From positions 1 through 41,142 of IMG/VR virus record IMGVR_UViG_2718218402_000007: a DNA stretch of 41,142 bases. One strand, given 5' to 3'. This stretch comes from a virus (lineage: Duplodnaviria; Heunggongvirae; Uroviricota; Caudoviricetes). The notes beneath the pieces were generated by a model, which was not told the origin of the DNA, searched no databases, and saw nothing but the letters and a program-made list of their open reading frames with translations. This document shows positions 2,959 through 3,732 of the stretch, piece after piece. Numbering within the stretch: the stretch's first letter is position 1; each line of letters opens with the position of its first letter. A program made the position numbers and the translations under genes.

Positions 2959-3732
2959 ATGGATATTACTGAGTTTCCTTCTGGAGTAATTGAACACCTT
3001 GGCTGGTATGTATACCGATTGATTGATCCGAGGGACGGAAGCACCTTCTATGTAGGGAAAGGCAAAGGTAACCGCGTATTTGCCCATATGCGCGGTGAAG
3101 TGGCAGCGACTGATGATGACGAGTTACTGAGCAACAAGCTAAAGCAAATTAGAGAAATAAGGTTAGCAGGACTTGAGGTTATCCATGTCATCCATCGACA
3201 CGGAATGACTGATGAAAAGACGGCGTACGAAGTCGAAGCAGCACTTATTGATGCCTACCCTGGGTTAACGAATATCATGAATGGTGCTGGCAGCAATGAA
3301 TTCGGCGCCGCGCATGTCAAAGAGTTGATAGCAACATATCAACCCGAAACCATAACATTTCATCATAAAGCATTAATGATTTCCGTTAACAGAAGTGCAA
3401 AGGATTCAGAGCTTTATGATGCGGTTCGATTTAGCTGGCGCATTAATGTCTCTCGCGCCAGCCAAGCAGAAGTCATTCTTGCTACTGTAAGGGGGATCGT
3501 TCGAGGGGTTTTCATTGCTGATAAATGGCTCAAATCAACACGTGAAAATTTCCCTACGATGAAATACTGGGACGAGGATCCGGACTTTGAGGCAACACAA
3601 AGTTCTCGCTATGGTTTTGAAGGTCGAGAAGCCCCACCTGAAATAGCAAATCTTTATCTTGGAAAAAAAATACCAGATGAATTAAGAAAAAAAGGAGCTA
3701 TGTCCCCGGTCCGTTACTCACCTAATTTTTGA
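2959..3732 (+). CDS. GIY-YIG nuclease-domain protein with an uncharacterised C-terminal domain
   Basis: N-terminal GIY-YIG signature ([27 protein letters not shown] ... E ... N). ATG at 2959; the track's 2908 start is a TTG. Moderately AT-rich; convergent with the invertase gene at the prophage end. Confidence 0.7.

Follow-up and report, generated by a model that had tools for sequence, protein, structure and literature searches.

A GIY-YIG nuclease gene beside the Pin-type invertase of a thrW prophage: a very probable, intact PD-T4-3/CMoRE anti-phage gene

The nuclease gene and its prophage setting

The window analysed here, a stretch of 41,142 nucleotides, carries at 2959-3732 (+ strand) a full open reading frame of 257 codons, with the ATG at 2959 and the stop codon at 3730-3732. 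Sixty base pairs downstream, and convergent with it, lies an intact gene for a Pin/Gin-type serine invertase of 184 aa (3793-4347, - strand; Pfam Resolvase, E 1.6e-51, and HTH_7, E 1.3e-10; pinE in relatives), so the invertase named in an earlier sequence-only reading of this locus is indeed the neighbour. Both domains of pin are intact in the window, whereas the gene is annotated as frameshifted in the near-identical locus of E. coli MLI104K1 (extract 9985-10540). Next to pin is an invertible tail-fibre segment of ~1.9 kb (4409-6288), with a 20-nt crossover site at each end (4409-4428 and 6269-6288); the two sites form an inverted repeat with 95% complementarity. Two tail-fibre assembly genes are encoded in the segment alongside two alternative C-termini for the fibre, with Pfam matches to Gp53-like_C, Caudo_TAP (twice), and Collar.

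At the other end of the window, a tyrosine integrase gene (38521-39684, + strand; Pfam Phage_integrase, E 3.2e-48) adjoins the thrW tRNA-Thr(CGT) gene (39699-39774, - strand; ARAGORN), which carries the att core; the element had been read as a thrW prophage, and this pair bears that out. Across the tail, head, and terminase genes, identity to the Shigella phages SfIV, SfII, SfI, and SfV is ~97%, and by sequence the prophage is assigned to the SfV/SfII/SfI/SfIV type at thrW. The window does not contain the other copy of the att core, which in the related genomes MLI104K1 and ECONIH4 is found beside a CP4-6-like island, 2-3 kb left of the cargo genes. The nuclease gene therefore lies within the element delimited by the att copies, in a variable region that separates att from the tail-fibre module. 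The earlier placement of the gene at the prophage end thus holds to the extent that the gene is near that end, but it is not the last gene inside the element.

What occupies the remainder of this variable region differs between relatives. For instance, the thrW prophage of ECONIH4 has, between att and the nuclease gene, a capsid-gene fragment and two uncharacterised genes of 487 and 138 aa (extract 6445-7911 and 8227-8646), in the stretch that is held by IS1 and corA in the window. In MLI104K1, a gene for an AraC-type regulator is found just beyond the region that matches the window. A PADLOC search of this neighbouring cargo (the 487-aa and 138-aa hypothetical proteins of ECONIH4 and the AraC-type regulator of MLI104K1) gave zero matches.

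Homology to the Sf phages starts exactly at 6269, where the tail-fibre gene contains a crossover site of the invertase. This breakpoint suggests that the fibre tip and gtr cargo of Sf-type phages have been replaced by the invertible module, pin, and the nuclease gene, and the three look like one block that was swapped in. In the Sf phages, the gtr genes follow the tail-fibre genes on the side of att. The gtrABC O-antigen-modification cargo of SfV, SfII, SfI, and SfIV is therefore comparable in position, being found at that end of a shared backbone, but it consists of lysogenic-conversion genes and not of a nuclease, and it belongs to the part of the Sf genomes to which the homology does not extend.

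Identity and intactness of the encoded protein

An alternative start codon, TTG at 2908, would give a protein of 274 aa. The ATG at 2959 is preferred because the RefSeq annotation of identical DNA and the crystallised proteins of the family both begin with MDITEF. The RefSeq entry is WP_000355484.1, from E. coli MLI104K1, in which the protein is labelled "LEM-3-like GIY-YIG domain-containing protein" and starts at the same ATG. The translation contains no disabling mutation.

Comparison with defence-system models and solved structures places the protein in a characterised family. The PADLOC model PDLC04031 for PD-T4-3, a single-gene system, matches with E 2.4e-140, and residues 1-256 of the protein align to positions 1-255 of its 256 positions. 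This full-length match to a defence system agrees with the earlier guess that the gene is defence cargo in a slot like that of mcrA in e14. In a phmmer search against PDB sequences, all 257 aa align with the CMoRE protein of E. coli O157:H7 (PDB 9U75/9U8D; E 3.7e-172) and with the APEC O1 protein (PDB 9U7U/9U7Z; E 1.1e-150); identity is 253/257 (98.4%) to the former and 219/257 (85.2%) to the latter. Additionally, the PHROG family phrog_5356, of unknown function, is matched over its full length, and an NCBIfam search of the 257-aa protein gave zero matches. The possibility that IS1 had removed the remainder of a longer gene is refuted by these alignments, which run end to end through the PADLOC model and cover all 257 residues of 9U75.

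The protein differs from that of O157:H7 at four positions: T51A, E55D, Q169K, and N197H (T51, E55, Q169, and N197 in the window). None of the four coincides with a position to which catalysis, interface contact, or ligand binding has been ascribed. Two of them, T51 and E55, are in or beside the autoinhibitory loop, and E55 is also the state of the APEC O1 protein. A change in substrate range as a result of these substitutions is unlikely.

The N-terminal 110 aa (2959-3288, + strand) form a GIY-YIG nuclease domain, which is matched by Pfam PF22945 (LEM-3-like GIY-YIG; E 2.1e-14, aa 28-110) and, weakly and below threshold, by PF01541; the motif noticed at the N-terminus in the earlier reading is thus genuine. 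Its residues read G15-W-Y17-V-Y19, F30-Y31-V-G33, and R39 in the translation. In the crystal structure of CMoRE, the N-terminal GIY-YIG domain has an extra tyrosine, giving a "GIYxY-YIG" arrangement of Y17, Y19, and Y31 (PMC12923530). All three tyrosines are present in the window protein, together with R39, E93, N105, and R80. The catalytic arginine and glutamate are presumably R39 and E93; the text of PMC12923530 gives no numbers for the pair. R39, E93, and N105 are also invariant in jumbo-phage homologues of 40-47% identity. In the published structure, the active site is further covered by a 15-residue acidic loop, located between helices alpha-2 and alpha-3, and the protein assembles as a dimer of dimers, for which V92 and L96 are required, as they are for defence (PMC12923530). 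The window protein has V92 and L96, and its acidic loop is intact as D52-D53-D54-E55; this DDDE sequence is shared with the APEC O1 protein, and the O157:H7 protein has DDDD.

The C-terminal ~130-150 aa gave zero Pfam or NCBIfam matches, and so the domain of roughly 150 aa that had earlier been called unassignable is indeed unassignable from profiles. Its identification comes from CMoRE. [quoted passage not shown] Between aa 125 and 257, only Q169K and N197H differ from 9U75, and Y127 is present. The C-terminal domain (3331-3729, + strand, ~aa 125-257, boundary approximate) is therefore assigned by its identity to 9U75/9U8D as the modification sensor, with its function taken from PMC12923530.

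By every sequence criterion tested, the gene is classed as a member of the PD-T4-3/CMoRE family, as represented by the proteins of E. coli ECOR68, O157:H7, and APEC O1 (PDB 9U75, 9U8D, 9U7U, and 9U7Z). It shares with these the length, the GIYxY-YIG motif, the acidic loop, the interface residues, and Y127; relative to the O157:H7 gene, it is set apart by the four substitutions and by an upstream region that is ended at -153 by IS1. It is very probably an intact anti-phage nuclease gene directed against T-even DNA with hydroxymethylated or glucosylated cytosine, and in its host the window allele would be expressed and functional. It is a known gene: PADLOC recognises it, and the structure and biochemistry of the family were published in 2026.

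Mode of action and comparison with other nucleases

PD-T4-3 was characterised and renamed CMoRE by Liu et al. 2026 (PMC12923530). The main text of Vassallo et al. 2022 (PMC9519451) mentions a GIY-YIG nuclease, but the name "PD-T4-3" is absent from it, so the attribution of the name to 2022 depends on how later papers cite it. CMoRE lowers the plating of T2, T4, and T6 by approximately five orders of magnitude; in vitro, it binds and cuts 5hmC or 5ghmC DNA and not C or 5mC DNA, and it restricts T4(hmC) but not T4(C) (PMC12923530). Cleavage follows CN11/N9G, leaves 2-nt 3' overhangs, and needs two modified sites (PMC12923530). In its native host, E. coli NILS69, deletion of PD-T4-3 leads to sensitivity to Tevenvirinae (bioRxiv 10.1101/2024.12.20.629700).

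The mechanism proposed for the window protein is borrowed from experiments on a protein that differs from it at 4 of 257 residues. The C-terminal domain would bind a flipped-out 5-hydroxymethyl- or glucosyl-hydroxymethyl-cytosine, a dimer of dimers would read two modified cytosines ~21 bp apart (CN11/N9G), and the GIY-YIG domains would make a double-strand cut with 2-nt 3' overhangs. With the acidic loop D52-D53-D54-E55 over the active site, unmodified host and prophage DNA would be spared. Incoming T-even-type phage DNA would thus be destroyed directly and non-abortively, and lysogen and prophage would both gain.

Two other functions for a nuclease of this kind were weighed. The first is that of an abortive-infection or toxin-type enzyme, which would kill the infected cell by non-specific cleavage. 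CMoRE has this potential, as a loop-neutralised "4A" mutant is toxic and non-specific and cuts ordinary DNA (PMC12923530). However, cultures with wild-type CMoRE survive infection at an MOI above 1, so its action is direct and not abortive, and in vivo T4 DNA is depleted while host DNA stays intact (PMC12923530). As the acidic loop is also intact in the window protein, an abortive role is highly improbable.

The second is that of a free-standing GIY-YIG homing endonuclease, which would spread by cleavage of an unoccupied cognate site. In favour of this, jumbo phages encode full-length homologues that carry the annotation "putative homing nuclease", and there is a weak match to the PHROG family phrog_314 (E 0.0021). 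However, Pfam shows none of the DNA-binding modules of homing enzymes (no NUMOD, IENR1, zinc-finger, or HTH modules up to E 1), and the second domain corresponds to a solved 5hmC-binding fold, that is, to the sensor. Furthermore, the near-identical CMoRE protein leaves host DNA uncut and cleaves T4 DNA at sites all over the genome, with no strict sequence requirement (PMC12923530). The gene also has a promoter region and a terminator of its own and is located in prophage cargo, not within or between conserved phage genes. Homing is thus about as improbable as an abortive role. The class of homing endonuclease to which the protein might have belonged, a prospect raised in the sequence-only reading, did not emerge from any of these comparisons, and modification-dependent restriction remains the preferred reading.

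In mode of action, the gene product would be a type IV restriction enzyme. Its closest counterpart in role and position is McrA of e14, an HNH type IV enzyme that acts on modified-cytosine DNA and is carried as cargo beside pin near the prophage end. In both cases a modification-dependent restriction gene is cargo next to a Pin invertase. The enzymes themselves are unrelated and differ in fold: there is no sequence match, Pfam gives only GIY-YIG families for the window protein with no HNH nuclease motif, and CMoRE neither binds nor cuts 5mC DNA but cuts glucosylated hmC. PvuRts1I and AbaSI are the functional parallels, as they too act on 5hmC/5ghmC and not on C or 5mC, and cleave between two modified cytosines at a defined spacing (CN11/N9G), leaving 2-nt 3' overhangs. 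The folds differ: the nuclease of CMoRE is of the GIY-YIG type and its sensor is without a reported homologue. PvuRts1I is a Vsr-like nuclease joined to an SRA-like sensor.

In Mu, the gene adjoining the invertase is mom, which is responsible for adenine carbamoylmethylation. The corresponding position is held here by the nuclease gene. A Capnocytophaga homologue with 48% identity is a modification-dependent nuclease in vitro and in vivo, and this family member degrades Mom-modified Mu DNA (PMC12366544).

The IS1 junction, the cassette edges, and distribution

A 768-bp IS1 copy lies upstream of the nuclease gene (2038-2805, + strand), as identified from its terminal repeats, its InsA/InsB open reading frames, and the annotation of an IS1A-family transposase in MLI104K1. 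IS1 had been described as directly abutting the gene, which is not the case: its right end is 153 bp upstream of the ATG, the coding sequence is untouched, and the intervening 153 bp (2806-2958, + strand) are native to the cassette, being ~99% identical to genomes without IS1.

A second IS1, inverted, is present at 1-331 and runs off the start of the window. Between the two copies is 1.7 kb of chromosomal DNA from around corA, with a truncated hypothetical gene (305-619), ysgD, and corA (974-1939). Even in the best-matching complete E. coli genomes, identity to this segment does not exceed 99.2%. MLI104K1 has the same IS1-corA-IS1 arrangement and the same IS1 junction, with the nuclease gene intact. 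A simple composite-transposon insertion was considered for this arrangement and rejected; the outer IS1 ends have no target-site duplication in MLI104K1, and therefore the arrangement is not a clean transposition.

The insertion does raise the possibility that an intact coding sequence is no longer expressed, or is expressed abnormally, because regulatory DNA was lost when IS1 and corA came in, leaving an inert remnant. In genomes without IS1, conservation upstream of the ATG reaches about -200 to -290 (-290 in the comparison of ECONIH4 with N1286) and includes an upstream hairpin, and ~140 bp beyond -153 that are common to two of the three IS1-free comparators have been lost in the window. 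Additionally, a consensus promoter scan of the + strand upstream (9/12 threshold) found nothing, and a terminator scan found none. However, the retained 153 bp are the best-conserved upstream stretch in all three IS1-free comparators, and manual reading gives a plausible candidate sigma-70 promoter, with TTGTGA at 2898-2903, a 17-nt spacer, and TAATAT at 2921-2926, 33 bp upstream of the ATG. We infer that these 153 bp still hold a promoter. The reading frame is free of disabling mutations, the same junction is kept with an intact gene in MLI104K1, and IS1 reads towards the gene, so that read-through could even add transcription. Silencing is thus unlikely, albeit the least improbable of the alternatives weighed here, and an intact and functional gene is preferred.

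At the other side of the gene, a hairpin followed by TTTCATTT lies between the convergent nuclease and pin genes (3753-3790; RNA fold -18.7 kcal/mol, z -3.2). This hairpin probably acts as a terminator in both directions and marks the 3' boundary of the cassette, and homology between prophage types stops within or just past it. In IS1-free genomes, a related hairpin of ~17-30 nt is also found ~200 bp upstream of the ATG (ECONIH4 extract 8936-8952, compared with 9960-9976). The cassette is thus bracketed by similar terminator-like elements, of which the upstream copy was removed by IS1 in the window.

The cassette is common in E. coli: it was found in 852 of 5426 complete genomes (at least 90% identity). 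The strains BL21 and MG1655 are both reported to be without the gene. The nuclease gene and this pin are contiguous in 565 genomes, which is ~69% when set against the 821 genomes that hold most of the nuclease query. For instance, in the thrW prophages of MLI104K1 and ECONIH4 the same cassette is beside pin, which answers the comparison with thrW relatives suggested in the earlier reading. The cassette is also present in lambdoid prophages at ssrA (E. coli FDAARGOS_1265, 6155-6928, and N1286, 6151-6924, of the locus extracts), where it is 97% identical, including the upstream region, and lies just after the tail-fibre assembly gene. In one of the ssrA-prophage genomes, the cassette is beside a pair of genes for a type II restriction enzyme and a cytosine methyltransferase; in the other, an IS1 is inserted just downstream of it. 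These lambdoid prophages are pin-less, and therefore the invertase is a frequent neighbour and not a functional partner. The notion of an invertase-adjacent cargo slot thus describes most copies, but not all of them.

The gene has a GC content of 43.9%, compared with 52% for the prophage. Low GC, an upstream region of its own, a terminator-like hairpin, and occurrence in two unrelated prophage types fit a moron-type cargo cassette. More specific scenarios are that the IS1-corA-IS1 insertion at -153 rewired CMoRE expression, for example by IS1 read-through, or that recombination at the flanking hairpins carries the low-GC cassette, as one piece, from the cargo slot of one prophage into that of an unrelated one; that one or the other applies is doubtful, and somewhat less probable than silencing. 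Plasmid carriage (pMTY18781-4) was also considered and was not accepted, as chromosomal pao genes adjoin the same thrW-type context.

A DNA-level search of 50,697 phage records did not match the gene, and homologues were found at the protein level only, with identities of 45% or less and mostly in jumbo phages; isolated Sf-type phages are therefore without the cassette. The jumbo-phage proteins are full-length CMoRE homologues with 38-47% identity, carried by lytic phages (Serratia phage Moabite, 2501-3262, and Pseudomonas phage OBP, 2492-3250, of the locus extracts; Klebsiella phage N1M2; and others). They keep Y17, Y19, Y31, R39, E93, N105, and Y127, and are without the acidic run in the autoinhibitory loop. 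These homologues may serve in phage-against-phage competition with modified-DNA phages.

Overall, no new question is raised by the gene, because the mechanism and structure have been published (2026) and defence predictors recognise the protein. It would explain part of the resistance to T-even-type (Tevenvirinae) phages that is expected of the strain, and would be another example of prophage anti-phage cargo beyond the tail-fibre genes. The heuristic of looking for an odd nuclease beside an invertase at a prophage end does, on this assignment, pick out real defence genes.
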